From Nitrospirota bacterium (GTDB lineage: Bacteria; Nitrospirota; UBA9217), in the NCBI GenBank assembly GCA_963741205.1, contig CAVUHW010000014.1:1-64000 (forward strand): a stretch of 64,000 nt of DNA, written 5' to 3'. The notes beneath the pieces were generated by a model. The model saw nothing but the letters and a program-made list of their open reading frames with translations, did no database searches and was not told where the DNA came from. A program made the position numbers and the translations under genes. How positions within the stretch are numbered: the stretch's first letter is position 1; the number at the start of each line of letters is the position of its first letter. Of the stretch, positions 10,676 through 48,968 are shown in pieces.

Positions 10676-12023
10676 TTAGTTCTTTTTCTTCGCCAGTTCC
10701 TTTTTGGCTTTTTTCACCCACTGGACCATGGGCCGGTTGGCTGGGCAGACGAAGGTGCAGGAACCGCATTCAAAACAGTCCATGAGGTTGTAGTCCTTGG
10801 CGTCCTGGTAATGCCCCTTCTCGATGTAGAGTCCGATGTAGGAGGGCTGGAGTTTCATGGGGCAGGCGTCGATGCACCGGCCGCAGCGGATGCAGGGTCC
10901 GTAGGATCCGGTGCTCACCTCGTTCTTCGGGAGGACCGTGATGCCGGAGGTGCCCTTGATCACCGGCACGTCGAGCGTGTACTGACTCATACCCATCATG
11001 GGTCCGCCGGAGATCACCTTCGCCGCCGTGTCGGTGAGGCCGCCCGCTTCCTCGATGAGCTGCGAGAAGGGCGTGCCGATGCGGGCCAGGAAGTTTTTGG
11101 GCTCCTTGACGCCCCTGCCGGTCACGGTCACGTAGCGTTCGATGAGCGGCCTGCCGAAACGCACCGCTTCGTAGATGGCCTCGGCCGTGCCCACGTTCTG
11201 CACCACCACGCCGACATCCATGGGCAGTCCGCCCGCGGGCACCGTTCTGCCGGCGATGGCCTTGATGAGCATCTTTTCCGCGCCCTGCGGATACTTTACT
11301 TTGACGGGCCACACCTTGATCTCGGGTGAACCCGCGGCTGCCTTGGTCATGGCCTCGACGGCATCGGGCTTGTTCGACTCGATGCCGATATAGCCCTTGC
11401 TCACATTCAGGATCCGCATGAGGATCTTGAGGCCCTCGACGATTTCCTTCGGACTTCTCGAGCATGAGCCGGTGGTCCGACGTGAGGTAGGGTTCGCACT
11501 CGGCTCCGTTCAGGATCACGACGTCGATGGGCTTCTCCTTCGGAGGAGAGAGCTTGACATGCGTGGGGAACGTCGCCCCTCCCATGCCCACGATGCCTGC
11601 GTCGGCAACCAACTTCTTGAGTTCGTCGGGGGAGAGCGTCATGTAATCGGAAGTTTCCTTGAGGCCTGCGACCCACTCATCCATACCGTCGTTCTCGATA
11701 ACGATCGAGGGGAGGTCCGCGCCGAGAATATGCGGGAAATTCCCAAGGGCGACCACTTTCCCGGAGATTGAGGCGTGGACGGGAGCGGAGACGAACCCGG
11801 TGGTTTCTCCGATCTTCTCTCCCTTTTTCACTTCCTGTCCGATGACGACGAGGGCCTTGGTGGGTGCTCCGATGTGCTGGCTTAGGGGGATGACTGCTCT
11901 TTTGGGGATGGCTGCGGAAACGGTCGGTTTGTGTGCCGTAAGCTGCTTGTTATCAGCAGGATGCACACCTCCGCTGAATGTGTCCTTTGCTTGTACGGTC
12001 GTGGCTTCCATAGTCTGTTTCAC
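10676..12023 (-). CDS. rnfC: Rnf complex subunit C (one frameshift near 11445)
   Basis: GGVHP, AGIVGMGGATFPT, NGAECEPYLTSD, KYPQGAEK, CIRCGRCIDACP, CFECGSCTFVCP across two overlapping ORFs. Confidence 0.93.
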
Positions 12024-23286: not shown

Positions 23287-25632
23287 CTAATCAGTTTCGT
23301 TATATTTAGAGCAACCGGTGAATGTGGCTAGATCGGCACTGAGGTACATGCAGAATTTTGTCCAATGGGATTGATTGAAAATATCCTCATAAGTGATGAA
23401 ACCGAACATATAGAGGACCTTCACCGTGAACTGGACTTTCAGCCGATTTGAGATACACTATCTCGAACGGAGGAAAGTTCATGCGAAAGATGCGACACAA
23501 TTACACGCCCGAGGAGAAGGTCGCCATACTCAAGCTTCACTTAGTTGAACAGGTCCCTGTATCGGATTTGTGCGACAAGTACAACCTGCAGCCGACGGTC
23601 TTCTACCATTGGCAGAAGCAATTCTTCGAAAATGGCACAGCAGCCTTTATCCAGGGCAAGGATCCAAAACGCAAAGAAACACAGCGCATCGAGCAGTTGG
23701 AAGATAAGCTTCGGCGCAAACACGAGGTGCTCTCAGAGCTGATGGAGGAGCACGTTAAGCTAAAAAAAGAACTTGGGGAGCTTTAACCGGCGTTTGGGTT
23801 CCCCATGATACCAGAGACGCCATCGTTGACTTCACCCGTGAATGGAGCGATAAAGCCGGCATCCCGATCAATCGGTTCGTCAGTTGGCTTGCTGTCGGCA
23901 AGAGCAAGTTCTACACCTGGATCGATCGCTACGGCAAAGCCAATGAGCATAACGCCCCCATCCCTCGTGATTTCTGGCTGGAAGAGTGGGAACGGGAGGC
24001 CATCATTGGTTTTTATCACGATGATCCCCTTGAGGGCTACCGACGGCTCACCTTCATGATGCTCGATCGGGATATCGTTGCCGTAAGCCTACCAGCACAT
24101 GGCGCATTTTATCCGAGGCTGGGCTTATGGATCGGTGGAACAAGAAAATCAGCAAAAAGGGAACGGGCTTTGTTCAGCCCCTTCGGCCCCACGAGCATTG
24201 GCACGTGGATATCTCGTATCTCAACATCTGTGGCACGTTTTATTATCTCTGCAGCCTTCTCGACGGGTGCAGCCGCTATATCGTTCACTGGGAGATCCGT
24301 GAACAGATGCTGGAAGCTGATGTGGAAATCATCATCGAGCGGGCCAAGGAAAAGTTTCCGGAAGCAAGACCCCGGATCATCTCGGACAACGGCCGCAGTT
24401 CATTGCCAAGGATTTAAAGAGTTTATCCGGCTGTCGGAATGACGCATGTTCGGACGTCGCCTACTATCGCAGCGAACGGCAAACTGGAACGTTTCACAAA
24501 ACGCTCAAAGGAGAATGTATCCGCCAAAGACGCCACTTTCCCTTGACGATGCCAGGAGACTGTGGCAGAGTACATTGAACCTGCCACACCGTTCGGCTTC
24601 ATAGTGCCATCGGCTATATTGCCCGGTGGACAAGCTGAACGGCGAGAGAACGAGATTCAAAGAACGGGATCAAAAGCTTGAAGCTGCCGGGAACAACGAA
24701 GAATCAAAAGGCAACAGACTTATCAAATAATCAACAGCTCTGATGGAACTGACTGCCTTAACTCAAGTGGCTGAAAGACTTTTACCGTTGGCAAGGTCAT
24801 CAATGTCAGCTTTAGAAAAAGGTTTCACAGACACATCTCCGGTGCTAACCATCGAATCATCTGAAGTCTCTACCTGAACATCTGGGAATTTGACATACAA
24901 ACTATTAAGAGATGACAAGAGCATCAGTTGCGTCCCTGGCTGCATCACTAAATTACTATGTTGAATCGCTGATATTGTCGATCTCAAACTTTGGAGTAAG
25001 TTCTTCATCATCCTTAAGAGTAAGCAACGAAACAACACCACGGAGTTTGCGAGCCGGAGTCTTGCCGCTATTGACTATAAGTACTCCACATTTCGGCGGT
25101 TGCCCCTCCTTGACGTAACGATTTTTACCTCCCTCCATGTAGACCGCGCCGACGGCTTGCATGGTACCTACCCAAGCTCGATGCTCAACTCTAAAGTTTT
25201 TAATGGTATCATTCAAAGCAGCATTGCCTTGCTTCACCGTTTCTTTCATGGAATCAGCACTGTCCTGAAAAGCCCTTGTTTGTTTTTGGATTTCTACGAG
25301 CAAAGCATCCTTATTAAAGTCGAACATATCTTTTGAGATTTTCGCGGCAACTTCGGCAGCATCAGCACTCTTTTTAGTGGCTTCGGTAGCTTCATGCATC
25401 TTGAAGCTTTGGTATCCGGCGAAGGTAGTATAGAAGATAATGACAATGAGTGTAGCTACGTCAATACGAAATCGCTTCCTTTCTGGATAATTTTTCTGAT
25501 TCGGACATTCTCTATAACAGATTGTGGAATTTCAAGTTCGGCTCTGAACGGGGGGGGTTGCCGTTGATTTTCAGTGGCATTGGATTCCTGATGTTCGGTT
25601 TTTTGAGGTTCTATCTGTCGATCATTTGTCAT
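23287..25632 (-). pseudogene. Hypothetical membrane-anchored cassette gene split by IS3 element, frameshifted
   Basis: N-part 25632-24781 (EATEATKKSADAAEVAA, RAWVG, VNSGKTPA); C-part beyond IS reads LYMFGFITYEDIFNQSHWTKFC...CSKYNETD*. Confidence 0.6.
23432..24780 (+). mobile_element. IS3-family insertion sequence (orfA 23481-23786; orfB frameshifted)
   Basis: IRL tggactttcagccgatttgag vs IRR ctcaagtggctgaaagact; HTH orfA; A7G slippery site 23762-23769; WHVDISY, ISDNG. Confidence 0.88.
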
Positions 25633-26055: not shown

Positions 26056-26951
26056 TCAAAACCCGGCGTTCATAATTGGGAAAAAGAAAAGTCCTGACTT
26101 CGGGAATCTGCTTGTCACAACATTAACTAAACCTATTTGTATGCCTTTTAGCGTATTGCAAACATTCAAGAATCCTATCTGACTACCTGCCACCTCATGG
26201 GCGTAATTGATCCCCCCAACTGAACGCCATTCACGACGCCCGACCCCCCAACCCTTGACTGCACCCGAGCTTGCGATATTCAGTGCTCCACCTTGAATCC
26301 CGTGCACTCCCTTTGCTGTATTTAAAATGCCGAGCTGAGCGCCATATAGCAAGCCCGTCATATTTCCAGGGGCGACCTGTAAGCCGTTTATCTCACCGGC
26401 GCTATTGGAAGGGACGATGTTAATGCTGATCTGGATACCATTGACTATGTACGCCACATTAAATAACCCGATTTGAATTCCGGTGACTTCATCAGAAATA
26501 TTACCGAGGCCCGCGGCCTGAACACCTGTAAAAGAAGCGTGGCCAACCTTATGCCCAAGAAGGTCCGTCTGCCCACCCCCATTAATGAGACCAATTTGAA
26601 GCCCCCACGAGTCTCTTTCAGACGTTCGCGGGCCCCGATTAATTCCGCCGATCTGAATGCCTTGCACTGAATCCGCACCGTTCGCAAGACCAATATCTAT
26701 TCCCTGCACCGCATTATTGTCCCCCCATATCAGGTCCAGACGAACGCCGCAAATGGTTTTATCCTTTGGGATGAGTTGAACAGGAGAATATAAACTCATC
26801 TGAAGAGGATAACATTCCGCGGCAAGAGGCGACGCTGAAAATAAAATTATGGCTAAGCATAGCATGCTTGGGAAGATGATATTTCCATCAGCTTTTCTTG
26901 ATGGAATTGATTGCCGCCAAGTGATATATCTTGCCATCAAATGAGCTCTCA
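26056..26951 (-). CDS. LA_2272-like surface repeat protein (start uncertain)
   Basis: PLQMSLYSPVQL, GVRLDLIWG, many GxQxGxxN repeats, C-terminal FFPIMNAGF. Confidence 0.7.
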
Positions 26952-27429
26952 TGTTGGACTCGAACGAACAAACCTTATGCAAATAATACAATATGTACTA
27001 TACAATTTCCAAAAAATGTACCCGACGTAGGAGGAAGTACTATTCATATAGTTCGAGCTTGGTATGGCTCCCTATGCTGGACTCGAATGGGTATATTAAA
27101 TTCGAAATGAAGTTCTCGTTTCTGAGACCTGATGTTGACGTTTAGTTCAGGATGCATCAAACGAAGAATGTTACAACAGGAAATAAATACTCGCTGGTCA
27201 CGCGACCAAATCGCCCTTCTCGAAATAATGCTAAGATACTTATCTATGCTTCCGGAATCTTTGGCAGTCGATTTAGAGAAGGAACGAACCGATGATGATT
27301 GAAAGGATCTTGTCGATTTCAGCTTCGAATGTTCCGACAGCAACGGCTTACGCGAAATGAAGTATTCACGCTGTGAAGAGGTGCAACTAATCAATGTTTC
27401 AGGATAAACAACTCGATTGAGTGATGTCA

Positions 27430-28074
27430 TTACCAAACACAAGGAAGAATCATCTTCACGCTCGTGCGATACGATTCATACTCCGCCCCGAATGCTTCTT
27501 TCAGTACGTTCTCTTCACGAAGGATACGCCTCACGAACGCGAAGGGCAGGATGATCGCGGCCACTCCTGCCGAGAACCAACTGTGCAGAAATACCGTCGT
27601 GAACACATACATTAGGAACGCACCCAGGTAACTCGGGTGTCGTATTACAGCGTAAGGACCACTTCGGATAATTCTGTGGCCTTTTTCGACCGAAATATGC
27701 ATGGTAAAGAAATTACCGAGCGAAAAGACTGCCCAGGTTCTCAAAGCAAGCCCCAGGGCTGCTATAACCAGGGCAATCACCGATATCGCGTCCCATTCTA
27801 CGCTCCTGGGATACCGCAGATATGCGGCTTCGAGAATTGCAGCAAGTTGGGTGGCGTAGACCGACCAGATGATCTGGGCGCCCGTCCCACTATCCCCCGC
27901 ACTCAAGGCAATGGTAAATGGATTGTAGCCGGGCTGAAGGATCGACGAAACAATGCCGATAGCCATGAGGATCCAGAGGTGCGGTGCGCGAAGGATGTCT
28001 ATGTTCCCCAGGACCGGCAGAATCACCAGCATTGCCGAAATAATGACCCCGAGAATCAATCTCTTCAGTATCAT
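27430..28074 (-). CDS. Isoprenylcysteine carboxylmethyltransferase (ICMT/PEMT) family membrane protein
   Basis: LGNFFT, HRIIRSGPYAVIRHPSYLG, RILREENVL, FGAEYESY. Confidence 0.85.
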   Translation of the reverse strand: MILKRLILGVIISAMLVILPVLGNIDILRAPHLWILMAIGIVSSILQPGYNPFTIALSAGDSGTGAQIIWSVYATQLAAILEAAYLRYPRSVEWDAISVIALVIAALGLALRTWAVFSLGNFFTMHISVEKGHRIIRSGPYAVIRHPSYLGAFLMYVFTTVFLHSWFSAGVAAIILPFAFVRRILREENVLKEAFGAEYESYRTSVKMILPCVW

Positions 28075-28081
28075 AGACGCC

Positions 28082-29761
28082 TCACATTTCGATCGTGTCT
28101 TGCAGGTGCTTTGCATCCAGTTTCGTGATTTCCGGGGCTGTTAAACGCCACTTATATTGGATATCTCTACGCCCGGTTTCCAGAAAATGCCTGCGCACTG
28201 TCTCCTCCCAGGATGGGGCCATCACATGAATGCAGGGCGGCAGGAGGCGCTTCGACTTTCTCTTCGAGTCATACTCGATGTTCATTTCACAAAGCGCTTT
28301 GTCGATGAAAGGAAGGACCGCGTCTTTCAGGTAACCTTTCGATAGTCCCGGCTCGAAGTAGATAAGAATCGCATAGCGTACCTTCTTGAAGTCGGGCACA
28401 ACCCGAAACTGTCTCACCGTCACGTTCAGTTCTGCTTGCAGCCTCCGAAACGCCTCGATCAGATGGTTTACGTGAACCTTCTCGCCGGTGATATTGAGCA
28501 CATCGTCGCCCTTCCGCACGAAAGCCACGACCGGGGTCTCCTTGTAGAAACCACGGACTTCAATGACGTCATCGATGTTGTAGCGGTATAACCCGTTCCA
28601 ATTGGTCAGGATGATCTTGTATCGTGTTCCCAACTCAAGCTCGTGGCATCGAAGCACCGGTCCGCCCGGTATTCCGCTCTCTCCTTCAGGAATGAACTCG
28701 AAGTAGTTGTTGAAGATGGCCAACACACCGGCGGGCGTATTATCCTCGCAAGGCAGCGTCATGGAGCCCTCGCTGGCCAGGTATCCGATGTCTCTCGTCG
28801 GGACGTCATCCCCATAGTAGGGGGAAAGCTTTTCTGCCTGGAAACCGACGCTCCCCCCGAGCCAGCACCCGATAAGTTTCAGATGCTTCCAGCAGGCGCG
28901 CGGTAGAAGCTTCCCGTGCCGGCGGATGACTGTATCGAGGAAGCGGGCTCTAGGCCTGTCCGGTATCAGGGAAGCGCTTATGGCTTTCAGGATGCCGGCA
29001 TCCCCGCTGCTGCTGTCGAGGGGCCATGTTCGGGATATCGAGCCGTCATGGATCGATCTGACGATTTCGTCCTGGTGGCAAATGGCGGTTTCGGCGACCC
29101 GGATCAGCGTTGTCGGATTTGGGGTAACTATGAAGGAAACCTCCCGGGAGAGGGCGAGAATGGCCGTCAGGTAATATCGCAGGTCGTAGTCCTTGATCTT
29201 CGCTAACATGAAAGGCAGCACGAATGAACGGCGCAGTATACGCGGCAGCCCCTCGTACATCATTCCTGAGGCGCTGCCATAGGGGATCCCGGAAGGCGTT
29301 GTTCCCTCCGTGGAGGCGCCTGAGATGAGGCAGATCGAATGGTCCAGATAGGACGGATGGGACAGCAGTGCCCGGCTAAGCCACTGATAGGAAAGCCGGT
29401 CCGCCGTGTCCCGCCCTTGCCGCGTGATCGGCAGAAACTTCGGGCTGCCGCTTGTCCCGCTCGTAACGCAGAACATCAATGGTGGGTCCGCTGTCAGTAT
29501 ATCCTTCTGCCCGTTCTTCATCTTCTCGACATAGGGCGAAAGATCGGAAAACGCATTCACCGGCACAGCCGTTGCGAAAGAATCTCCATCGTTCACCCGT
29601 GAAAAGCCATATTTCCGGCCGTATTCGGTGGCCTGATTGTGCTTGACGATGTTCAGGAGCAGCTTCGCCTGGGCCCGGCGCGGGTCCTTTGCGGCTTGAT
29701 CAAAAGTCCGCATAATGGCATGGCCCCTGAGCCGTATGAGAGTTTTCAGCAACATCCCCAT
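28082..29761 (-). CDS. GH3-family acyl-acid amido synthetase
   Basis: TEYGRKYGF, TSGTSGSPKFLP, YLASEG, NYFEFIP, GLYRYNIDD, GEKV. Confidence 0.88.
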   Translation of the reverse strand: MGMLLKTLIRLRGHAIMRTFDQAAKDPRRAQAKLLLNIVKHNQATEYGRKYGFSRVNDGDSFATAVPVNAFSDLSPYVEKMKNGQKDILTADPPLMFCVTSGTSGSPKFLPITRQGRDTADRLSYQWLSRALLSHPSYLDHSICLISGASTEGTTPSGIPYGSASGMMYEGLPRILRRSFVLPFMLAKIKDYDLRYYLTAILALSREVSFIVTPNPTTLIRVAETAICHQDEIVRSIHDGSISRTWPLDSSSGDAGILKAISASLIPDRPRARFLDTVIRRHGKLLPRACWKHLKLIGCWLGGSVGFQAEKLSPYYGDDVPTRDIGYLASEGSMTLPCEDNTPAGVLAIFNNYFEFIPEGESGIPGGPVLRCHELELGTRYKIILTNWNGLYRYNIDDVIEVRGFYKETPVVAFVRKGDDVLNITGEKVHVNHLIEAFRRLQAELNVTVRQFRVVPDFKKVRYAILIYFEPGLSKGYLKDAVLPFIDKALCEMNIEYDSKRKSKRLLPPCIHVMAPSWEETVRRHFLETGRRDIQYKWRLTAPEITKLDAKHLQDTIEM

Positions 29762-29771
29762 TCATGCTCCC

Positions 29772-30914
29772 CTATCTTAGGGAAATGACCTCGGTTGCAT
29801 GCCTCCGGAGCACATCTTCCCTGACGTCAATCCCGAGACCTGGCCCGGTCAATACCGGCGCTTTCCCGCCGTATCCGAAAGCCACCGCTTCTTGAGCGAT
29901 GTCCTCAATAAGAAGGTGTGTGCCGTAGGAACCCTCGACGAACCGCACCTCGCCTAAAGAGGCAGCCACATGACGACCTGCGGCCGAAAGGATCGCGGTC
30001 TCTCCGACCTGGCAGCCGAGTTGGATGCCGACGCCGGCCGACTCCGCGAGCTTGGCGATGGCGAGCGTGTTGTAGAGCCCGCCGCATTTCGAGATCCGGA
30101 GATTGAAAAAATCGCATGCCTTCGCGGCGATCAGTTCCTCAGCATCTCGAAGTGTTACCAGGGATTCGTCAACCATCACCGGCACGGGAGTGCTTGCCCG
30201 GAGCGCTGCCAGCTCCACTGGGTCTCCCCGGGGGATGGGCTGCTCAATGCATTCCACATCATATTCTGCAGCGGCAGCGAGGAAGCGTACTGCCGCATCC
30301 CGGCCGAACGCGCCGTTCGCGTCCAGCCGCAGAGATACATCAGGCCCCATGATCTCTCTCACGAGGCAGACTAGTTCGATGTCTTCAGGCCTGGTTACCT
30401 TGATCTTGATACTACGGAACCCGCGTGCCATGAAGCGCTGCGCAATCTTCTCGATCCTGCCAACCGGGCCCGATGTAATGACGCCGGAATAGGTGACTTG
30501 CTGACTTTTGGGGGTCAGCACTGCCGCGAGGGACAAGCCGGCCGCTCGCAAAAGACAGTCGATCATCGCCAATTCAACCGCGCAACGGGAAGCGTGCTGT
30601 ATGACTGCACGCCCGGTATTCGCTCGGGGAAACAGTCCGTTCACAAAAGACATAACATGGGGGACTTCCGGGACATTCAGATCAGTCCCCAGGAACGCGG
30701 GTAGCAGTACATCCCGAACGTGCCCTATACTTGTCTCCCTCGTCTCGCCCGTAACGTAAGGGCGGGGAACTCCCTCTCCGAACCCCGATATCCCTGAATC
30801 CGTGGTGACCTTCACGATAACCGAGCCAGAGCGATCGCGCCGGGCCAGACTATGGCTAAAGGCTTCGACGAAGGGGATATCGAGGGCGTAGATGTCTGCT
30901 GAAGCGATCTTCAC
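29772..30914 (-). CDS. Enolase superfamily, MLE-subgroup enzyme
   Basis: GFGEGVPRPYVTGET, KIK, LRLDANG, IEQP, VDES, NLRISKCGG; GTG start. Confidence 0.85.
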   Translation of the reverse strand: MKIASADIYALDIPFVEAFSHSLARRDRSGSVIVKVTTDSGISGFGEGVPRPYVTGETRETSIGHVRDVLLPAFLGTDLNVPEVPHVMSFVNGLFPRANTGRAVIQHASRCAVELAMIDCLLRAAGLSLAAVLTPKSQQVTYSGVITSGPVGRIEKIAQRFMARGFRSIKIKVTRPEDIELVCLVREIMGPDVSLRLDANGAFGRDAAVRFLAAAAEYDVECIEQPIPRGDPVELAALRASTPVPVMVDESLVTLRDAEELIAAKACDFFNLRISKCGGLYNTLAIAKLAESAGVGIQLGCQVGETAILSAAGRHVAASLGEVRFVEGSYGTHLLIEDIAQEAVAFGYGGKAPVLTGPGLGIDVREDVLRRHATEVISLR

Positions 30915-30934
30915 GGTCTGACCTCTGCGTTATT

Positions 30935-32273
30935 TCACCAGGCTGTATCGCCCGAAACAAGCATGTGATTGGAACACATATGATAGCAGCCGCAATCCCG
31001 GACGTAATCGGCCTGACCGCTTTCCATGTCCACTACCTGGAATGTCTTCGTCGTCTGCACAAAAAGCTTCGTCCCATCCGGCGAGGGGGCGATCGTTCCG
31101 ATCATGGCCGGGTTCGCGGGATTCACTCTCGCTGCGGCCGGGAAGTCGCTCACCTTAATCTTCCGGATGAAGCGCATGTCTACGGCGTCGACAAGGAACA
31201 CCTCGTCCGGGAAGCCCATGGCTGCTATCACTTTGCGCCCCCCATGGTTGAAAACGTGCATATTCGTAAGCCGGTAGAAATCAGGTTGGGTGAACACGCC
31301 GATCTCGCGGGGGCCCTCCGGGGCCAGGCGATACTTGAAGATCGAGGCAGGACCGCGGAATTTCACATTATAGGAAGCCTTCTTCATGAGTTTGAAAAGA
31401 CCGGAGTGCTCGAACTGGAAGTTATGATTGGAGAAGTAGATTACATGCGGGTCTTCGGGGTCGAACTGAGCATGGGCCGCGACGATGAAGCGGTCCAGCC
31501 TCCATTGCCGCGCCTTCTCATCGAGGTCGATGATCAGTACTCTCGATGGGACGATGTTGTTGTCCTCGTCCAGATACATCCCCAGCTCACACGCGACGCA
31601 GTACCTCCGGTCCCTGCTGACGGCTGATCTCATGCAGGTAGTCGGACAAGTCGCCGCTCCATATCTCGTCCGCCGCGCTCGAATCGATCTTCTGTTTGTA
31701 GATCCTGGAGAAAACCGGCCGTGACAAATCCCCTATCCTTTTGAATGAATCCGGCAGCGAATAGGACATGGCATAGAGTTCACGGGTTTCACGGTCGAAC
31801 CACTGCTGGGAACCCAGGACATGGTCCCCCTCTGTGTCGTCAAGAGTGTGATAAGTGACGCTCTTCATACGGCAATCCACCTCGAGAAATCCAGCGTAGG
31901 ACCACAGGCTGATAATGTAGCGGCCCTCTCCGATGTCGGTTGCCGTATGGGGGATGGTCATAAGCATGATCTGTTCGAGGAAACTGAAGCCATAGTGGTA
32001 TCGGCGGGAGATGCAGTGGAGCGTGGAAGGAGTACGTTCATGCACCGAGAGCGCCCTCTTGAACCGTTTATACCCCGGCAGGATGATATCCCTGTGACGG
32101 ATGCTTACGCGGAAACCCTTTGACGCCTGGAAGTTCATGAAGTAATAGGCGTGCTCCCCATATTTCAGCTTCCACGTGCTCCTAACTGTCGGAACTACCA
32201 CGGTGGCGTCCATGGCGGTGGCTACAGGGAGCGAAAACTCCTCGATTCTCGCTGGGATCGTTATGGTCCGCAT
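30935..32273 (-). CDS. Hypothetical ~445-aa protein, probable beta-propeller (frameshift near 31630)
   Basis: Overlapping ORFs 31587-32315 and 30935-31633; AHAQFDPEDPHVIYFSNHN, IAPSPDGTKLFV. Confidence 0.6.
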
Positions 32274-32333
32274 GGCCTCGTCTCCTTTCCTCTCCCCGGT
32301 CTGGCGCTCACACACTGAAAAACCGCGCGGCTT

Positions 32334-33485
32334 CTATGCCTGGCTTCTCAGTCTCGCTGCGGTAGCCTCGATCTCGATGAGCCATCCCGGTCTGCACACG
32401 GGGGCTTTTACATATACAGCCGGGAGGTGTTTCGCATACCGGTCTATATGCGGTCTCACGAAGGCATGGTCAGCAGCATCCCGGAGATATACGATGAAGC
32501 TGGACAGGTCCTCCCTTTGAAACCCGCCTGCATCGAGAAGAGCAGAGATGTTCTCAAGCGTACGATCGGTTTGCTTCTCCACATCGCCGGGATGAACGAT
32601 CTGTCCGTCCTTATCGATACTCGCCGTGCCTGATATGAAAAGGAATTGCAGGTTCCCCATCTCCACGGCAGTGGCCCTTTCGAACGTAACGCCGTAGGCG
32701 TGCGTGGGACACAGGTGCTCCGGCGCCTGGATGTACCGGATGGCGCCCCTCCCGTCGCCCGTGAGCGCATAGGCGTCCATAAAAACACGGGCGAACCGGC
32801 TGCCCGTTCCTCCCTGGATGCCCGTGCTTGCGATGTAGTGCGTGTCTTTCGTCAGGTTGATAGAATCGAACAGCTCCTTCCTGGCCTTTACGATGCCGGG
32901 ATAGTCCGCATCCAGATGCGGGGCATAGATCCATGTCCTGAGAACGCCGTCCTTGATGGATGTGCCCAGGGCCGAGAGTTTCTTTCCCAGCAGATTGAAA
33001 ATATTCGTAGTCTGCGCTTCCGCGCTGGAATGCTCATCAGCGTCCGGGTCGAGCAGGTGTTCAACAAAGATGTGCTTGACTCCCATTTTTGTCTCGAGAC
33101 AGAAGAAGTTCTCATCTCTGGACTTCGCCGTGATGTGGCTGAGACACATGCCCAAGAGAGCCGCTTTCACACCGGAAGCTGGAGGTTGTTCCGTTACGGA
33201 GAAGAAGAAGTCTGTTTTTTGCCGCTTTTTGAAGTTTCGGAATTCATCGTGATGGGTTAGGAGATCGCTTGAGAATAATCTTCTTACGGCCGAGGCATCT
33301 CCAGGGATATTGAACGTATTAAAAAGCTCCGCTTCGGCCCTTTCGATCGTTCTTACCTGATCCGCGATCTTTTCAGGCTGGTCCGGGACAATCGAATACC
33401 AGAACTCGATCCATCGTCCGTCCCTGTCATTTAAGCGGCTGTATCGGACCTCTGACCCCGCAAGTTTTACAAACCCTGTTTCCAT
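32334..33485 (-). CDS. Long RidA/YjgF-fold protein, chorismatase (FkbO/Hyg5)-like
   Basis: LRTWIY, ASTGIQG, YGVTFERA, FISGTASID, APVCRPGWLIEIEA. Confidence 0.72.
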   Translation of the reverse strand: METGFVKLAGSEVRYSRLNDRDGRWIEFWYSIVPDQPEKIADQVRTIERAEAELFNTFNIPGDASAVRRLFSSDLLTHHDEFRNFKKRQKTDFFFSVTEQPPASGVKAALLGMCLSHITAKSRDENFFCLETKMGVKHIFVEHLLDPDADEHSSAEAQTTNIFNLLGKKLSALGTSIKDGVLRTWIYAPHLDADYPGIVKARKELFDSINLTKDTHYIASTGIQGGTGSRFARVFMDAYALTGDGRGAIRYIQAPEHLCPTHAYGVTFERATAVEMGNLQFLFISGTASIDKDGQIVHPGDVEKQTDRTLENISALLDAGGFQREDLSSFIVYLRDAADHAFVRPHIDRYAKHLPAVYVKAPVCRPGWLIEIEATAARLRSQA

Positions 33486-33866
33486 GTGTTTGTCACCTTT
33501 CCCAAGGCAGGCGTCGCAAGCACTTACTTCTTTCCTTGGTATGCTTTTACTGCTTCATTGCACGATTCTCGTTGTTCTGCGTGTATACCATGCTTATACC
33601 AAAGAGGGATTGCGGCGAACTGAAGGAATGCAGTTTTTTTTGCGTCAGCACAAAATTACTATTGCCGGCACGGCAAGCCACGACAAGTACGGGTTCATAC
33701 GATGGTGGCGCGGGTGTTGGAATGCATCGAGACAGAGAAGAGCGTATATCCGGATCATTCTCCGATAATGCTCTGGTGCAGTTTCTTTGTCTGTTACTCG
33801 GACTTCATGTCCAGGCTGCGCCTAAACCGGCGTTTCGTCAAGTGCCGCCCTGAGCGTTGAACAACA

Positions 33867-36608
33867 TTAGCAACTGACTTCTTGCTTTTTATGGGGTAGG
33901 GGCTGCTCGCCCTTGAGCAGGATACGGGCGTCGACAACAGCGCATCCTCTCCCCTTGTCGAAGACCATGAGCGGATTGATCTCCATCTCGGCGATCTCCG
34001 CGAAATCGTCGACCAGCGCGGAGAAGCGGAGAAGGACCTCCTTGAGCGCATCGAGGTCCTTCGGGCTGCTTCCCCGCCAGCCGGTCAGGAGCGGAAGGCC
34101 CTTCAGTTGCGCAAGCATATAATCGGGGTCCTTATCCATGAGCGGGTGGAGCGAAAAGGCCACGTCCTTGATCAGCTCGACCTGCACGCCGCCGATCCCG
34201 ACCATGAGGAGCGGCCCGAATACCGGGTCCTGAGACATGCCGACGATCACCTCCTGGCCGCCTTTCATCATCGGCTGAATAAGGACGCCCTGCATCGCCT
34301 GTTCAAGGCCCGCGGTCTTCATCCGTTCCTGAATGGCGATGAATTCATGCCGTACGTCCTCCTCGTTGCCCAGATTGAGCGCGATGCCGCCCACGTCCGT
34401 TTTATGCGTGAGTGTGGTCGAGCGGAGCTTCATAGCGACCGGGAACCCGATCTCGCGCGCGGCCTGTGCCGCCTCTTCAGAACTGGTGCGGCCCTGGTCT
34501 CCGCAACCGGTATTCCATACTTCTGCAGAAGTCCCATTGCAATTTCCGGCGCCAGCCAGCCGCCTGCTTCTTGGAGCGCTCCGTGAGAGCGGAGATAGCT
34601 CCTTGCCGCATTCTCGTTTATATCGGAGAACTCGCGGATATGTCCCTCCTCGCGCTGCCGCGAGCGTGCATAGGGCCAGGCAAGCGCGAGGGACTGGACC
34701 GCGTCTTCCGGGAACATGTAGACCGGAAGGACCCATGGTCTCCGTAACGAAGATCGATCGAGACCGCGCCTGACATCATAAAACAGGCGAGCACCGGCTT
34801 TCTTCCCCGGTAGCTGTCCATGACGCTCCTTATGCCGAAAGCAATCTCCTGAGGGTCCCGCAGCGGGATGTTGATCACGAGGATCGCGTCCAGGGCGGGG
34901 TCATCGAGCATGACCCTGAGCGCCTTTTCAAACTGGTCGCCCCTTGCAGAAGCGATAATATCGACGGGGTTCCCGAGGGCCGCTTCCTTTGGCAGGAATG
35001 ATGCGAGCTTCGTCTTCGTCTCCTCGGAGAGGGCCGGGACCGACAGTCCGCTGTTGATCGCCGCATCGGCGGCAAGCACGCCCGGGTCCGCCCGCGTTCG
35101 TCAGGATGCCGATACGCGGCCCCTCCAGCAAGGGCTGGCTGGCCAGGAGCTTGGCGATATTGAACATCTCCGCGATCGTATTCACCCTGATGACGCCCGC
35201 CTGCCTGAAGAGCGCGTCCACGGCCGCGTCCGAGGCCGCCAGTGCGCCGGTATGAGAGCTGGCGGCCCGGCCGCCCACATCGCTCCGGCCAGCTTTCACT
35301 GCGACGATCGGTTTCTTTCTCGATATGCGCCTGGTTATCCTGCTGAAGCGGCGGGCATTGCCGAAGGTCTCGAGATACAGCAGGATGACCGCGGTATTTT
35401 CGTCATCCTCCCAGAATTCGAGCAAATCGTTCGAGGAGACATCCATGCGGTTGCCGATGCTCGCGAAGTGGGCGATACCCAGATTGTTGCTCTTTACATA
35501 ATCAAGCAGCGCCAAGCCCAAGGCTCCGCTATGGGAGCTGATGCTGAGATTACCCCGCGGCGGCCAGATTTTCGCAAAGGTCGCGTTCAGGTTTACCGCC
35601 GGGTCCGTGTTCATGATACCCAGGCAGTTGGGGCCGACGCAGCGCATGCCGTAAGAGAGCACCTTTTCCCGAAGAAGACGCTGACGATCTTTCCCCTCGG
35701 GACCGCTCTCGGCAAAGCCCGCGGAAATGACCACGATGCTCCAGACCCCCTTTCGACCGCATTCATCGACCACATCGAGAACACATCTGGGCGGGTACGA
35801 CGATGACGGCAAGATCAACATCGCCAGGAATGTCGCTGACGGACGGGTAACTCATAACACCGTTGACTGGCAGTTGCCTTCGGGTTCACCGGGAAGGCCG
35901 CGCCCCCGAAATTGCCGTAGAGCAGATTGCGGAAAACCTTTCCGCCGACGCTGTCCGGGTCGCGGGAGGCGCCGATGACCGCGATGGTCCGCGGATACAT
36001 CATCCTGCGCATGCCGATGCGAGCCGGCAATGTGCTCGCGGACCGCCTGCCGCTTCGAGAATTCCTCCTGGTGCTCGAGGTCGAAGGTGAACTCGGTGAA
36101 TCCTTCATTCATCCGCTTGACGATGTTGAATCCGCTCTCCTCGAAGACGCGGATCATGAGGGTATTCTCGGGAAGGACATTGGCGAACAGTTTTTTGATC
36201 CGGTACTTGAGCGCGGTCTCGGCGAGCTTCTCGAGCAGGGCCGTGCCGATGCCCCTGGCCTGGACGTTGTCCTCAACAATAAAGGCTATCTCCGCCGTAT
36301 TTCCATCCGGCGACAGGAACCAGCGAGCCCACGGCCCGGATCAGCTCCTCGGCTGCGCCCTCGCCGGTAAGCCCGACATACGCATGCGTTTCGGGCGGAT
36401 GCACGTTGGTATAGTAATCAAGCTCCTGGTCGCTGATATATTCCTTCATATGCCCGAATCGGAAGTAGCGGGTCTGAGGGCTCAGGCGATAGAAAATTTT
36501 CCGCAGCTTATCTTTGTCCTCCCGGGTGATCGGCCGGACCTTGAAGGTATGGCCGTCTTTCAGAATGATTCGAATCACTTCGGCTTTTCCGGTTACTGAA
36601 ACTTTCAT
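33867..36608 (-). CDS. GNAT + CoA-binding + ATP-grasp fusion (Pat-type acetyltransferase / ADP-forming acyl-CoA ligase); several frameshifts
   Basis: LSPQTRYFRF, IAVIGASR, GPNCLG, SHTGALA, NPVDI, HKTDVGGI, DPVFGPLLMVG, EMEINPL. Confidence 0.85.
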
Positions 36609-37974: not shown

Positions 37975-39696
37975 AGCTTGCTATATTGTAGAAGAGTAGA
38001 AAAAGTTTGGTTAGAAGGCTATACTCTTTCTTGATTTAAAACCGGCTGGCGAGTTGGTAAATAAATCAGAGAAAGGAGCATAGCCCTTGAAGATGATTAA
38101 AACAAAAAAGCAACGGATAGTCAATGGGAAAGCTCTTATCGTGACGGTAGATATTAGCAAAGACAAGCATTTTGGATACTGGCGCTGCCCAGACGGCACT
38201 GACGTGAAGCCCTTCTCCTTTCCGAATAACGGGGCCGGCTTGCTTGGAGTTCTGGGAGCGAATATCCACGGCAAAGGAGATTTATCGCCTTGATGAAATT
38301 GTTTTTGGGTTTGAGTCCACCGGGCCGTATGGAGAGGCTCTCGTGCATTTCATGAAAGCACGAGGCGTGCGCCTTGTGCAAGTGAACCCCATGCATACCA
38401 AAAGAGTCAAGGAGCTTCAGGGGAATTCTCCGAACAAAACCGATCAGAAAGACCCCAAGATCATCGCAGATATCATAGAGCTTGGCCGTGCCCTCACGGT
38501 CGTGGTCCCGGAAGGGCCTGCTGCTGAGCTTCGAAGGCTTACTCAGGCCAGGGAAAGAAGCACGGAGCGTCATACGGCGTTGGTGAACCAACTGCAGAGC
38601 TTGATCGCGATCATCTTCCCCGAGTTTCTCCAGGTGGTGAAAAATGTTAAGACGGCAACTGCACAATATCTTTTAAAACACTGCCCGACACCTCAGAGTC
38701 TTGTTGCATACGGTCTTGATAATCTGACCAAGACCATGTGGAATGTGAGTCGCGGGAGGTTAAGGGAAGACCGAGCCAAGGCGCTCTACGAGGCGGCGGA
38801 AGGTTCTATAGGCGTAATTGAGGGCCAAGCGAGCATCCTTCTCGAAACCCAAGCGATTCTTGCTGCCATGGAAGCCTCTGAAAAGTTTACGGAGGGGTTG
38901 GAAAAGGAAATGAGTCATCATCTCAAACAGATTCCCTACAGCACTTGTCTTCTTTCGATCAAAGGAATCGGGGAGGTTACCGCTGCCGGCCTCATTGGTG
39001 AAGTGGGCGACTTTCGGAGGTACAGCACGCTCGGGGAAATCATGAAACTTGCCGGTCTGGATCTCTTTGAAGTCAGCTCCGGAAAACACCAGGGAACTCG
39101 CCATATTTCCAAGCGTGGCCGCCCCTTGATGCGGAAGCTCTTATATTTTGCCGCGATGAACATGGTTCGTCAAGGTTGCGTTATGGAACATCAGTATCAG
39201 AGATACCTTGATCGGGGCATGCTAAAGACCAAGGCCTTGATCGCTATCGCACGTAAGCTTCTCCGGATTATATTTGCTATCGTACGAAATAATGGTGTTT
39301 TTGATTACTCGAGGACATCATACCAATTCAAGGAGGCTGCATAACACAAAGTCTTGGCGTGTAGGCGGGGAGATTATCACTCCATCCTCTAAGGCGGCCG
39401 AGCCGACCTTCAAGTTCAGAATCAATAACCCCCGCTTGCACCTTTGTCTCTATGAAGCAAGGTCAGGGCTCTTTTGAGACCCTCAAATTACCAGGGTTGG
39501 ACAAGGTGCCGCACAAGATTACTGTTTAAGGGGGGGTATCAGGATATGGGCTGCCCTCAGAGAATCGATCCTGGGGCATTTGTGAGAGAAAATTTTTGCC
39601 CTGCGAGGCTGAAAACCCAAGTCTGGCCACTCTAGCCCATACTGCCGTCTCAGGGGTTTGCTCCATTGCAAAGATTAAAATTCAATATGAAAAGCT
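37975..39696 (+). mobile_element. IS110-family element (transposase 38093-39344, frameshift near 38245) with ~350-nt 3' non-coding end
   Basis: DEDD residues (VDISK, FESTG, KTDQKD), IKGIG, SSGK, ISKRGRPLMR; tentative ends AGCTTGCTATATTG / CAATATGAAAAGCT. Confidence 0.85.
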
Positions 39697-39814: not shown

Positions 39815-41848
39815 GTAGAGTAAAACCACTGGCGTAGTAGCTACAGGTTGATATTTGTTTTCGCTGTTTCTCTCCGTTTCCTCTGAGAGTGACACATTAT
39901 CTCAACCATACCCTATCTCCAACGCCTTCTCGTCAAACCGTACGTGAGGTTTTCCCTCATACGGCTTTCCTGTCACTCTTCACAACAAGGGTTATGTGAC
40001 CTATCGGTTTGGGGCAGCTTTCGGTTGGATAGTATCGTATATGGTAGTCATTGTATAGACCCCATCGCTGATATACATCCTCCCTTACTCCACCGCTTCC
40101 AGCCAAAGCCCTTCAGTTTCTGTCTCTTCATGACAAACTTACGCACTTTCTTCTCAACTGTCATCTCTGACTTTGTTGAAGGTGCTATTGCTGTTGCCTA
40201 TCCGGAAATAATTCACCCAGCCACGTGATCACTTCATTGACTGAGCGGATTACTTCGTTCATGGGCTTTGTTCAAGTTTGCCTTGAGCACTGCTTTTACC
40301 TTCTCGCCGATTTCTTGCGCTTCTTCTGCTTGTGGTGTTTTGCTGACATAGCGTTTTGCCATTGCGGTTCTTGTTAAGCCGGAAGTCGAACCCGAGGAAG
40401 CTGAAATATGTCGCCTTCCTTGAGATTCACGACTTTGGTCTTTTCCTGGTTCATTTGGACGTGCAGCTTGTCCAGTTCTTCTTTGAGCCGTTTCTGCACG
40501 CTGCGAGAAGCCAGTCTTCATCGGGATGTCAGTGAACAAGGATGACCATGTCGTCAGCGCTTCGAACGAAGTCGATGTTGTCGTAGCCCTTGCGCCGGGT
40601 TACCTCACGTGCTCGTTCCATCATCTCATCCACTCGTTGAGGTAGAAGGTTGGACAGCAGGGGTGATATGATCCCGCCCTGCGGCACTCCCTTGTTCCCA
40701 TTAGCTTTGAGAATGAGTTTTAAGCAGGTGCATGATTTTCGTCGTCTTGCACCCGTCTGGGCGACTTTCTCCGAGCAAGAATGTGATGTCTGATGTTGTC
40801 AAAATATCCGCTCAGGTCTACATCTACGACCCGTGTGAGTCCCGTGTAATACCGCTGACGCTCACGTGCTGTACTATTGCCTGATGGGCGTGCCGTTTGG
40901 GGCTGATACCCATAAGAGCAGCCCTTGAAGTCCGCTTCGAATATCGGTTCGAGTATGAGCTTCAATGCTCCTTGGACTATCCGGTCTTTGATCGTGGGTA
41001 TGCCGAGCATTCGGGTCTTGCCATTACCTTTGGGTATCTCGACCCGTCTGATTAGGTATCGGTCTGATATAGTTCGAGCGTGAGAGCTCCTGACTTATCT
41101 GTTCAGAAATCCGTCGAACACCTCTGCCTCGATGTCTTTAAAGCTCTTTCCATCGATGCCGGGTGCCCCATCGTTGGCTTTTGCCAACGATAGGATTCTT
41201 CAGCACTTGCGCTCTTACAGATATGACAGTAGAGTCCCCAGAACTCCAGTGCTTCTAGCCTTCGACTTTGCATGTATATCTTTCTCCTCAGTTCTTGCAG
41301 ACTCGATGGAAGCATTTGTCATGCTTCCCTGCCTTACCTTGATGAAAGATATGAGATACGAGCAGAGCTCCTTTGCTCCGGTGAGGTTGTGTTGTCCTTG
41401 CCATCATACGCTACGACGGACTCGTCCGCCACCCTCTTGTCCGTCGGCCCACTTCGTCGTGCGACTATAGGGCTTACCGCTGCTCCTTGCTGTTTCCGAC
41501 AAGGACGAGGAGGGTTTCCCCAGTTGATACGCGCACCTTTCTATCCGTGTCGCCGCTGGCTACCCCGCCACCGCTCCTCTTACTTTGTAGAGCCAGGGTC
41601 AGATAAGAGAATTCTGCCTTCGCCACGCATTGTAGAGGCTCGGCCAGTGGAGCTTGTCTCTTACGAGGCTACTTCTACGTTCACGTTAGTTACGACCCGG
41701 ATAGTCGCTCACCCGGCCTTACAGGACTTTGTCGATGGGCTTCAGAAGAAAGCGTTTCCCATACCTCCTGCCATCCAAGCTACGTGGCTCTGGCTTTTAC
41801 CATGACGGGACTTTCACCCGCAAGTGTCTGCACTCTCGCTGGGCACAC
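39815..41848 (-). mobile_element. Group II intron
   Basis: 5' GTGTGCCCAGCG...GGGTGAAAGTCCCG; domain V GAAAGCCGTATGAGGGAAAACCTCACGTACGGTTTG; 3' end ...TTACTCTAC. Confidence 0.88.
39990..41322 (-). pseudogene. ltrA: Group II intron reverse transcriptase/maturase, heavily frameshifted, no endonuclease domain seen
   Basis: LQELRRKIY, APGIDG, LGIPTIKDRIVQ, EPIFEADF, VDVDLSGYFDNIRH, PQGG, VRSADDMVI, GWVNYFR. Confidence 0.82.
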
Positions 41849-45808: not shown

Positions 45809-47181
45809 GGATCAAGTACATTTTGAGTGGGTAAAAATGAGAAGCAAAACTCATAGAACCCGCTCTGGTTAAGTGTTTTGTTCTTGTCTTTGCTCGGGAA
45901 AACGTGCTATGAATCGTGCATGAGAAAGAAGGCACTCAGCGATTCATACCGTTTCCCTGGTTTTACTCCGCAGCGCACCGTTGTTGGCATCTTCGGTGAT
46001 TCCTACGCTCGAGTGATACGGCTCACTCGGCGGGGGAAAAAACAGTTTGTGGCGTCTGCAGCACGGTTCACCGGACCTTTTACGATCATAAGATCAAGCG
46101 GGTCCGTGATCTTTCCTCTGGCGATGCCCGCATCTACCTGGAACTGCCAGTACGACGAGTCCAGTGCCGGAGGTGCGGCAAGGTGAAACAGGAGAAACTG
46201 TCGTTTCTGGCAGACAGCCCGTTCTATACCAAGCGCTTTGCCTTCTATATTGGCAAGCGGTGCAGCACCTCAACGATCAAGGATGTTGCCAAAGAGTTTC
46301 ACCTTGACCGAAGGGCCGTCAAAGAACTCGAAATGCAGTACATGCGGGAGAAACTTCGTCGTGCCGGCAACCCCGGGCCAAAGGTTATCGGTATTGACGA
46401 GATCTCGATCCGCAAGGGCCATACCTACCGGATCGTGGTCAGCGATCTGGAGAGGCGTCGGCCCATCTGGTTCGGAGGAGAAGACCGCTCGGAAGAAAGC
46501 CTAAACCGCTTCTTCGAGTGGCTCGGAGCCGCAAAAAGGCCAGGAAAATACGGCTTGCGGTCATGGACATGTGGAAGCCGTTTGAAAAGTCCACACGCCA
46601 GAAAGCTCCACAGGCGGCCATCCTCTACGATAAGTTCCATGTCATAAGGCACCTGAACGAAGCCTTGGACAAAATTAGAAAGAGCGAATACGCCAGACTG
46701 ACCGGCAAAAATCGTAAGTTCATCAAGGGTCAGAAATATACGCTTCTCTCCCATCGCGAGAACCTTACTACGGATGGGAGAAGATCGTTAAAAACGCTTT
46801 TGGCCGCTAACAAGCGGCTTAATACTGCCTACATCCTCAAGGAGGAGTTTGGGCAGCTCTGGGACTATCAGTCGGAAGCCTGGGCCAGAAAGTTCTTCGA
46901 CAACTGGAAGGCTTCGTTAAAATGGCAACGTCTCAAGCCCTATGAAAAGTTCGCCAAGATGGTCGAACGTCATTGGGACGGCATCGCCGCCTTCTGCAAA
47001 CCCGAGAACAAAGTCGCGCTCGGCTTTGTCGAAGGCCTGAACAACAAGATCAGGGTCATTCAGCGTCGTGCCTATGGTCTTCGAGATGAAGAATATCTTC
47101 GTCTCAAGGTGTTGACCTGTATGCTTCCTGAAATCTGATTAAAAACGGCTCAAAATTACCCACTCAGTTTGCACTTGATCC
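45809..47181 (+). mobile_element. ISL3-family insertion sequence (transposase ~45920-47138, split frames)
   Basis: TIRs GGATCAAGTACATTTTGAGTGGGTAA / TTACCCACTCAGTTTGCACTTGATCC; flanks AATTATTT/AATTATAT; GIDE, MDMW, DKFHV, EGLNNKI. Confidence 0.92.
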
Positions 47182-47666: not shown

Positions 47667-48659
47667 TCAGCGCTCAATAGTCACAATTCCGATCTTGTTC
47701 AAGCCGCTGCATGCGATGTAAACTTCTCCATCCGAAGTTGCCGCCATGTTGCGGATTACTCCGCCTCCTGAGGGGACATTCCATGCGGAAAACTCTTTCG
47801 TACGCGGGTCGAAATGGACGACCCTGTTCGGCTGAACTTCTGTTTCGCTGTACCAGACCATCCCGTCCGGAGTTATCGTAATGCCGTACGGCCCGGAACC
47901 CCGGCCTCCGGGCGAAGGTCGCTCCTCAACCTTGCCGGTCTTCGGATCCAGCCTTCCGAGATATCCGCGTCCATAATCCGAATAATAGATCACATCATCG
48001 TGGGCAATAGCAAGTCGTCGAGGCTTGGCTCCCTTAGGCAGAGAGTATTCGGTGATCTTCATCGTCGCCGGGTCGATGCTCCCGATTTTGTTCGTTCCGA
48101 ATTCACAGAAGAACGGGACTCCTTTTGAGTTCACGGCAATGCCGTAGGGCCTCGAACTACGAGTAGGTGATGGCTTCAAGGTGATGATGCCGGTCTTTGG
48201 ATCGAGTCTTCCGACAAAGTTGCTCACCTGCATGGTAAACCAGAGAATACCTGTTTCGTCGAAGGCCAACGAATGCGGGTCCCGGGCCGCTTTGTCGGGC
48301 ATGAAATATTCCTTCACCTCGCCCGTCTGCGGATTCAGCCTGCCGATGTAGCCCCTGGCGTTCGCGGTGAACCAGATGTCTCCATTCTTGTCCGCTGCGA
48401 GACCGTGGGGACCTGAACCTGGAACCTTCAAATGGTACTCTTTGATTGTTCCTGTCTTTCGGTCCAGCCTTCCCAGAACGTTGGCAAACATGCCGGTGTA
48501 CCACAGCGCTCCATCCAGCCCCACGGCGGGGTCATGGGGAAATGAGTTCGGTGTCGGTACATCCCATTCTTTTATTGACACCCTGCCGATGCCTGCGACG
48601 GATATCGAACATAAGGAAGCAACAACAAGTGCTGCTACTATGTATCTGCTTTTTTTCAT
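47667..48659 (-). CDS. Secreted Vgb (virginiamycin B lyase)-like beta-propeller protein
   Basis: Signal peptide; repeated PH/PY-G...DG.(L/V)W(Y/F)T...GRLDPKTG blades. Confidence 0.85.
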   Translation of the reverse strand: MKKSRYIVAALVVASLCSISVAGIGRVSIKEWDVPTPNSFPHDPAVGLDGALWYTGMFANVLGRLDRKTGTIKEYHLKVPGSGPHGLAADKNGDIWFTANARGYIGRLNPQTGEVKEYFMPDKAARDPHSLAFDETGILWFTMQVSNFVGRLDPKTGIITLKPSPTRSSRPYGIAVNSKGVPFFCEFGTNKIGSIDPATMKITEYSLPKGAKPRRLAIAHDDVIYYSDYGRGYLGRLDPKTGKVEERPSPGGRGSGPYGITITPDGMVWYSETEVQPNRVVHFDPRTKEFSAWNVPSGGGVIRNMAATSDGEVYIACSGLNKIGIVTIER

Positions 48660-48891: not shown

Positions 48892-48968
48892 TGGTCGGGG
48901 CGAGCCGATTTGAACGGCCGACCACTCGCACCCCAAGCGAGTACGCTACCAGGCTGCGCCACGCCCCG
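48892..48968 (-). tRNA. tRNA-Pro(GGG)
   Basis: CGGGGCGTGGCGCAGCCTGGTAGCG...CTCGC-TTGGGGT-GCGAG...GTTCAAATC...CGCCCCGACCA, 77 nt. Confidence 0.96.

Follow-up and report, generated by a model that had tools for sequence, protein, structure and literature searches.

Within a 64,000-nucleotide stretch of a Nitrospirota genome (positions 1-64,000 of contig CAVUHW010000014.1, assembly GCA_963741205.1; hereafter the window), we detected five co-oriented genes on the minus strand, A to E, packed into positions 33485-27430. These genes form a conserved, self-contained module that is kept together across several phyla, and their predicted functions suggest that it may make a small, tailored N-acyl-amino-acid. 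The genes and their main sources of assignment are as follows.

33485-32334, minus strand: gene A, predicted chorismatase-fold protein with several RidA-like domains, 383 amino acids (Pfam, NCBIfam, Foldseek)
32273-30935, minus strand: gene B, predicted seven-bladed propeller of about 445 amino acids, in two frames here (single open reading frame of its relatives, AF2 model)
32315/32273-31587 and 31633-30935, minus strand: the two open reading frame pieces of gene B (open reading frame list)
30914-29772, minus strand: gene C, enolase-superfamily enzyme of the MLE subgroup, 380 amino acids (MR_MLE_N and MR_MLE_C)
29761-28082, minus strand: gene D, GH3 acyl-acid amido synthetase, 559 amino acids (GH3 N, M, and C domains)
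28074-27430, minus strand: gene E, ICMT/PEMT-type membrane methyltransferase, about 214 amino acids (Pfam ICMT and PEMT)

The intergenic gaps are 60, 20, 10, and 7 nucleotides, in agreement with an earlier sequence-only reading of this DNA that had drawn attention to the five genes. These values presuppose starts for B at 32273 and for E at 28074, where the alignments of their relatives begin; an alternative start of E at 28116 gives 228 amino acids.

The sequence-only reading had expected the five genes to occur together elsewhere, and they do. A scan of genome contigs with A yielded 80 loci, against all of which the window proteins were searched by tblastn. A close relative of A (56-78% identical) was present in 12 of the 80 (L001-L012), and five of these 12 (L004, L005, L008, L010, and L011) carry the whole A-E set in hosts assigned to Lentisphaerales, Victivallales, Nitrospirae, Verrucomicrobia, and Smithellaceae, with identities across the five of 61-78% for A and 45-67% for D. 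At least one of B-E was found in four further loci with a close A; three loci that match the pattern are cut by contig ends, leaving A-B-C in L001, A-E-D in L006, and A-C-D in L009, and L003 has B only alongside A. L002 and L007 have A without B-E, and L012 ends within A. Gene order varies from A-B-C-D-E to A followed by E-D-C-B on the opposite strand and to E-A-B followed by D-C, with C directly upstream of D in all six loci that have both genes as well as in the window. The genes beyond the module, including the one upstream of it, are unlike in every related locus. Because this gene set reappears in other phyla amid different flanks, we reject chance adjacency of A-E on the ground of synteny. 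Indirect support comes from a comparison by hand of the listed relatives, in which 23 of the 119 listed for B and 28 of the 119 listed for D share the exact 'longest_contig' value with a listed relative of A. More than 7666 homologues of A were detectable; leaving aside the window's own protein, the best 119 show 62-80% identity and are drawn from many phyla. Identities this high between phyla suggest that the module was probably transferred horizontally.

Variant modules were observed in metagenome-assembled genomes of Ratteibacteria and Omnitrophota (L002:984-8556 and L003:8332-15258), in which A is 65% identical to that of the window. In both, a Na/H exchanger with a CBS domain lies near A, and GH3, enolase-type, and ICMT genes are absent. 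L002 also carries a DUF2334/polysaccharide-deacetylase-like gene, TauE, a sulfotransferase gene, and an ATP-sulfurylase/APS-kinase gene.

Gene A is, as judged from its sequence and predicted fold, a chorismatase-fold enzyme with its catalytic apparatus kept, lying outside the curated FkbO/Hyg5 family. Its Pfam match is to Ribonuc_L-PSP at residues 280-377. AlphaFold (AF2) models of A and of an orthologue of B were compared by Foldseek, as the sequence-only reading had suggested, leading to FkbO/Hyg5 for the former and to carotenoid-cleavage dioxygenases for the latter. For A, the top seven PDB matches were FkbO 4bps (E 3.4e-13) and Hyg5 5a3k/5ag3 (to 1.9e-11) over about 289 columns, and single-domain RidA proteins ranked behind the chorismatases at E 7e-8. 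When only residues 130-300 of A were compared with the PDB, there was a single RidA match, an insignificant one. The Protein Atlas returned only Ribonuc_L-PSP clusters for A, one of which has FkbO_Hyg5-like_N in 12% of its members.

The residues of A are more telling. We aligned A and its relatives with three plasmid genes annotated as FkbO/Hyg5 chorismatases and found 36 columns invariant between the A set and the three annotated proteins, including C364, R365, L369, E371, E373, and SGTASI, along with A219/T221/G222/I223 (ATGI) and Y264/G265/F268/R270/T272. According to excerpts of a report on Hyg5 (PMC7170507), Glu-334 of that enzyme acts as the essential acid by protonating the enolpyruvyl methylene of chorismate, and the corresponding residues of Nat-hyg5 are Cys-318 and Glu-325. 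The spacing from Cys to Glu in A (C364-E371) is seven, the same as in Nat-hyg5, and the end of the Hyg5 alignment, where A query 375 meets chain position 338, is consistent with E371 matching Glu-334. The FISGTASI and LxEIE motifs from which a chorismatase had first been proposed are present in A (residues 283-290 and 369-373), but they fail to discriminate because ordinary RidA proteins have them as well. What does discriminate is the shorter Cys-Arg loop and the lost 'PAR' arginine: aligned with PH0854 and other RidA proteins, A reads 'PAV' with a gap at that arginine, and its loop is two residues shorter, as in chorismatases. The earlier expectation of a chorismatase fold with its active-site residues in A thus appears sound. 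A role for A as a RidA imine/enamine deaminase was considered and rejected, as the 'PAR' arginine is missing and the protein, at 383 amino acids, is multi-domain rather than a single-domain trimer.

Compared with FkbO, Hyg5, and XanB2 chorismatases, A thus shares the predicted fold, the catalytic Glu, a Cys-Arg loop of equal length, SGTASI, ATGI, and the YG..F.R.T block, but it is only 25-26% identical to the annotated FkbO/Hyg5 genes, is about 40-60 residues longer, and differs in its N-terminal third. Known chorismatases serve polyketide synthase (PKS), nonribosomal peptide synthetase (NRPS), or pigment pathways, whereas A is paired with a GH3 enzyme. On two Streptomyces plasmids (L081:988-3500 and L083:937-3405), an annotated FkbO/Hyg5 chorismatase gene is followed, with a four-base overlap, by an AMP-binding (adenylating) gene; by analogy, this pairing of a chorismatase with an adenylating enzyme would follow the same logic as A with GH3.

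The remaining 68 loci hold paralogues of A that are 35-46% identical (51% for the partial match in L071) and none of B-E, and profiles of B searched against the neighbours of these distant paralogues gave no match. In one setting, mostly in Bacteroidota (for example L013:843-7946), the paralogue stands among genes for a porin, imelysin, a di-haem oxidoreductase, porin O/P, and cytochrome c, placed between the oxidoreductase and porin O/P. In another, mostly in Verrucomicrobia and Planctomycetes (for example L024:6235-11095), it follows PSD1/PSCyt2, DUF1501, and a 943-amino-acid PPC-domain protein. The settings in L013-L080 look like envelope or iron-related systems.

Gene B matches no Pfam or NCBIfam family, and its own family comprises 231 proteins, all unnamed or hypothetical and none with a Pfam domain. 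For modelling by AF2 we used the orthologue P0121 of L010 (74% identical to the window pieces) in a 35-sequence alignment; the model is a seven-bladed propeller with a predicted local distance difference test score (pLDDT) of 90 and a predicted template modelling score (pTM) of 0.90. Its best PDB matches in Foldseek were carotenoid-cleavage dioxygenases (6vcf, E 7e-11 with a template modelling (TM) score of 0.54; TM range 0.50-0.54), among them a Nitrosotalea carotenoid-cleavage dioxygenase, Synechocystis ACO, NinaB, VP14, and lignostilbene dioxygenases, with unrelated propellers next. At the sequence level, 16 of 35 B members match PF03055 (RPE65) weakly at E<=10, each time with residues at about 155-240 against profile positions at about 152-226, though all of these matches lie below the gathering cut-off of 27 bits, the best at 20.5. 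A B-family profile found nothing among PDB sequences at E<=10 and 201 relatives among 1.84 billion representatives, and none of 36 full-length distant relatives that were scanned matched RPE65. The Protein Atlas offered unnamed propeller clusters and weak leads, including one cluster with a seven-bladed lactonase family in 42% of its members.

Conservation in the wider B family (16-55% identity) may point to a metal site. In this family H110, H269, H285, R336, and H438 never vary, and H215 and H341 predominate at their positions. According to the strand list of P0121, H110, H215, H269, H341, and H438 stand at or just before the first residues of the inner strands of the blades, a placement that, in the model, would be expected for an axial metal site. 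Carotenoid-cleavage dioxygenases of the RPE65 family (PF03055; 6vcf, 2biw, 8fty, and 6ojr) are likewise seven-bladed propellers of similar size, but B is only 9-12% identical to the structural matches in sequence and stays below the Pfam cut-off. We suggest that B is probably a metal-binding propeller resembling these dioxygenases, without assigning it to their family. The beta-propeller that had been recognized from the sequence is thus retained, and refined to a family of its own with a distant resemblance to carotenoid-cleavage dioxygenases.

Relatives of B consist of one open reading frame of 444-463 amino acids in seven related loci, and in the window one extra base at about 31622-31626, outside any homopolymer run, shifts the frame. 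The single product at 30935-32273 proposed by the sequence-only reading therefore agrees with every relative. Genes A, C, D, and E are full length compared with their relatives. Several other genes of the window are also broken. Directly upstream of the operon, an ADP-forming acetyl-CoA-synthetase-like gene (Succ_CoA_lig, Ligase_CoA_2, ATP-grasp_5; 33867-35821, minus strand) lies in three reading frames. In the RnfC region (10770-12023), the Complex1_51K match ends at position 54 of 150, and among the Nuo genes (53134-60091) the NuoF-like open reading frame ends at 81 of 150, NuoCD begins within the 30-kDa domain, and NuoG is split into three open reading frames. Such breaks may stem from an indel-rich assembly or from a decaying genome; because housekeeping genes of the window are broken as well, gene decay and an assembly error are equally likely for B.

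For genes C, D, and E, the families claimed earlier were borne out. C matches MR_MLE_C (E 1e-54, 186 bits) and MR_MLE_N in Pfam, in line with the enolase superfamily named by the sequence-only reading, and the assignment can be narrowed to the neighbourhood of N-acyl-amino-acid and dipeptide epimerases. Its best solved relatives are 2p88 (E 9e-42), which we take to be an N-succinyl-Arg/Lys racemase, and the dipeptide epimerases 3jva, 3q45, and 1jpm (to 1.5e-33); muconate cycloisomerases rank lower. C aligns with 2p88 and 3jva at the KxK motif, at the Asp/Glu/Asp metal ligands, and at the second Lys, and so retains every catalytic residue of these MLE-subgroup enzymes. C falls below all NCBIfam equivalog cut-offs, scoring 161.4 bits against 335 for its best match (muconate/chloromuconate cycloisomerase), 108.8 against 200.65 for o-succinylbenzoate synthase, and 117.9 against 500 for Ala-Glu epimerase. 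The sequence suggests that C is probably an N-acyl-amino-acid epimerase or racemase, differing from the characterized racemases and epimerases in its coupling to a GH3 ligase, a pairing that was not found in the literature searched.

D carries all three GH3 domains (N, M, and C; E 2e-59, 3.5e-20, and 5.7e-8; 201.6, 72.3, and 33.9 bits against a cut-off of 23.6 each), and its PDB relatives are JAR1 and GH3.12 (E 5e-30). T100, S101, T103, K108, Y327, S330, E331, Y392, R393, and D398 are invariant in 16 orthologues and presumably make up the three GH3 nucleotide-binding motifs. We detected 481 relatives of D. Its only NCBIfam match is to the OlsH model NF052613, at 60.5 bits against a cut-off of 620 and with a best stretch at residues 13-211. 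D thus resembles plant JAR1 and GH3.12/PBS3 and bacterial OlsH in its three domains and nucleotide-binding residues, but it belongs to a separate bacterial group of about 560 amino acids in which an enolase-superfamily gene always precedes it, and it is not an OlsH equivalog. GH3 enzymes are known to act on small acids.

E matches Pfam ICMT (E 3.7e-18, 66.2 bits, cut-off 24) and PEMT (1.7e-12), and its C-terminal RHPxY.GAF and RR..EE...G..Y..Y motifs are invariant in seven of seven orthologues. It shares with ICMT/Ste14 its nature as a membrane protein, the Pfam matches, and the C-terminal cofactor-binding motifs, but scores 74.7 bits against the isopcys_mtase equivalog (NF040696), whose cut-off is 160. 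To our knowledge bacteria lack CaaX prenylation, so the substrate of E must differ from that of ICMT. ICMT itself needs, at a minimum, an N-acylated amino acid whose alpha-carboxylate is free.

The operon has a GC content of 0.56-0.57, nearer to that of core genes than to that of the insertion sequence (IS)-laden DNA flanking it. Mobile elements abound in the surrounding 22-50 kb, which fits the accessory region described by the sequence-only reading. The features of the flanks are listed here.

33486-33866, minus strand: intergenic region 5' of gene A, 381 nucleotides (open reading frame boundaries)
26056-26991, minus strand: LA_2272/VC2662-type surface repeat lipoprotein gene, next downstream of the operon (NCBIfam)
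23448-23786: IS3-type helix-turn-helix gene, flank of the operon (mobile stretch listed as 23448-24442)
38244-39344: IS110 transposase, flank of the operon
39815-41823, minus strand: group II intron RNA domains, RF02003 and RF00029 (Rfam)
46518-47138: ISL3 transposase fragment, flank of the operon

The 381-nucleotide region at 33486-33866 is probably the seat of the operon's own promoter. A terminator-like hairpin lies within it at 33676-33662, just past the gene preceding the operon, though such sites are no commoner than in shuffled sequence, and promoter and terminator scans likewise gave site counts not above those of shuffled sequence. An Rfam search of 33300-34000 for a riboswitch or leader 5' of gene A gave nothing at E<=1. 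Farther out, the DNA that separates the ISL3 fragment from a multihaem cytochrome gene carries a propeller gene of the Vgb-lyase type, a tRNA gene, and a MerR-family regulator (47667-48659, minus strand; 48895-49316, minus strand).

From the gene content, its conservation as a unit, the folds, and the kept catalytic residues that we observed, we infer the substrates, step order, and product of a pathway that, with no NRPS or PKS genes involved, would make a small, tailored N-acyl-amino-acid; the methylated acyl-amino-acid that the sequence-only reading had proposed is part of the same inference. We hold this view tentatively, giving it a little less than an even chance. A would act on chorismate or a close analogue of it, splitting off the enolpyruvyl group to yield a hydroxy-benzoate or dihydroxy-cyclohexadiene carboxylate together with pyruvate, so that A, with B in most genomes, would act as the supplier of an acid derived from chorismate. 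The histidine-rich, probably metal-binding B may then tailor this acid or the later conjugate, which is the least certain step. D would adenylate the carboxylate and couple the acid to the amino group of an amino acid, C would invert the alpha-carbon of the resulting N-acyl-amino-acid through a two-base proton transfer, and E, in the membrane, would methylate the free alpha-carboxylate to give a neutral ester able to exit the cell. The product would then be a neutral aroyl-D-amino-acid methyl ester. D, C, and E would converge on one kind of molecule, because GH3 enzymes form N-acyl-amino-acids, the nearest relatives of C epimerise such compounds and dipeptides, and ICMT methylates the free alpha-carboxylate of an N-acylated amino acid, and the invariant adjacency of C and D fits a ligase and an epimerase acting as a pair. 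A bolder version, which we consider a long shot, is that the product belongs to a class of diffusible metabolites not known so far, namely chorismate-derived aroyl-D-amino-acid methyl esters formed independently of ribosome, NRPS, and PKS, and that the pathway has been passed among four or more phyla of bacteria from sediment and groundwater. In this version, B would found a new family of metal enzymes, remote kin of the carotenoid-cleavage dioxygenases, that functions in hosts living without oxygen.

Several observations weigh against a chorismate-derived N-acyl-amino-acid as the product. A reaches only 54.9 bits against TIGR04444 (FkbO/Hyg5), whose cut-off is 325, with residues 181-374 covering model positions 101-309 of 311, and its AF2 model is only moderate (pLDDT 73), with TM scores of 0.44-0.52 to chorismatases. 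The distant paralogues of A sit in other contexts without B-E nearby, and because these gene contexts are quite different the wider A family need not act on chorismate. The module itself is not uniform: L009 has no B between A and C, and A without B-E (L002) or with B only (L003) stands beside TupA-like ATP-grasp genes. No shikimate or chorismate genes, transporter, or regulator were found within the module across the loci compared. The nearest structural relatives of B use O2, yet many hosts look anaerobic by name, and the reaction of B is less certain than any other step of the pathway. Owing to the frameshift in B, the module may also be inactive in the host of the window.

The match of D to OlsH raises the question of whether the module could instead build an amino-lipid, with D coupling fatty acid and amino acid in the manner of OlsH, C epimerising the head group, E methylating the carboxylate in the membrane, and A and B supplying or remodelling something else. 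E is indeed an integral membrane enzyme from a family with lipid-like substrates, and OlsH is the only NCBIfam match of D. As described in excerpts of the OlsH report (PMC12493201), this bacterial GH3-like enzyme forms lyso-ornithine lipid out of ornithine and fatty acids and is encoded in one operon with a methyltransferase; the authors expect other N-acyl amino acids from other bacterial GH3 homologues. The OlsH match of D is weak, however, at 60.5 of 620 bits and best over residues 13-211 only, an OlsI-type O-acyltransferase is lacking in and beside the module, and an amino-lipid pathway leaves no role for A, which is the best conserved gene of the set, well ahead of D in the five full-set loci. 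We regard an amino-lipid product as unlikely. The loci in which A keeps other company suggest a different direction, namely decoration of the envelope or of a surface polymer, where A would make a modifying group, an ATP-dependent ligase (GH3 or TupA-like ATP-grasp) would attach it, and E would methylate it at the membrane. In L002 and L003 a close A (65%) adjoins TupA-like ATP-grasp genes and the Na/H exchanger with a CBS domain, L002 has in addition the polysaccharide-deacetylase-like gene, the sulfotransferase, and the ATP-sulfurylase/APS-kinase gene, and the gene downstream of the operon in the window encodes the LA_2272-type surface repeat lipoprotein. That lipoprotein, on the other hand, had no match above the cut-off when searched by tblastn over the 80 related loci, the module is without glycosyltransferase, flippase, or polymerase and has different flanks in every genome, and known GH3 enzymes take small acids as substrates. 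Such decoration seems to us quite improbable.

A catabolic or detoxifying route for an aromatic compound, in which B would be a cleaving oxygenase and C a cycloisomerase of the muconate type, would account for the best NCBIfam match of C (the muconate/chloromuconate cycloisomerase subfamily, at 161 bits), for the alkene-cleaving dioxygenases that are the nearest folds to B, and for the seven-bladed lactonase in 42% of one Atlas cluster of B look-alikes. C nevertheless stays below the 335-bit cut-off and is nearer to epimerases among solved structures, a ligase that spends ATP and a methyltransferase are biosynthetic features, no ring-activating or beta-oxidation genes lie near the module, and many hosts are anaerobe-like by name. 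We consider breakdown of an aromatic compound very improbable. The probability that is left belongs to explanations outside the tailored N-acyl-amino-acid, the amino-lipid, the decorated envelope, and aromatic breakdown.

Returning to the tailored N-acyl-amino-acid, the parts of the module come from known superfamilies, but the literature searched describes neither their combination nor the B family nor the A subfamily. That search, outside which most subscription journals lay, found no paper with both a chorismatase and GH3, and queries on GH3 with ICMT, muconate, racemase, N-acyl amino acid, or chorismatase in anaerobes or metagenomes found no description of the cluster. In excerpts of the one paper on bacterial GH3 enzymes that emerged from the search (PMC12493201), OlsH is the characterized example, and the authors call for the study of others. 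The module provides a second well-defined genomic setting for a bacterial GH3 beside that of OlsH, with a testable logic of partners in which an acid supplier, a ligase, an epimerase, and a methyltransferase would work together. It also points to two large and unstudied families, one of chorismatase-fold proteins, now labelled 'Rid family hydrolase' and counting more than 7666 relatives, and one of histidine-rich propellers that lacks a Pfam model and has 231 close relatives plus about 200 representative ones. Because the proteins are unusually well conserved across phyla (61-78% for A in the full-set loci), we suggest that the product may have a general role in uncultured anaerobes, for example as a signal or a protective compound.

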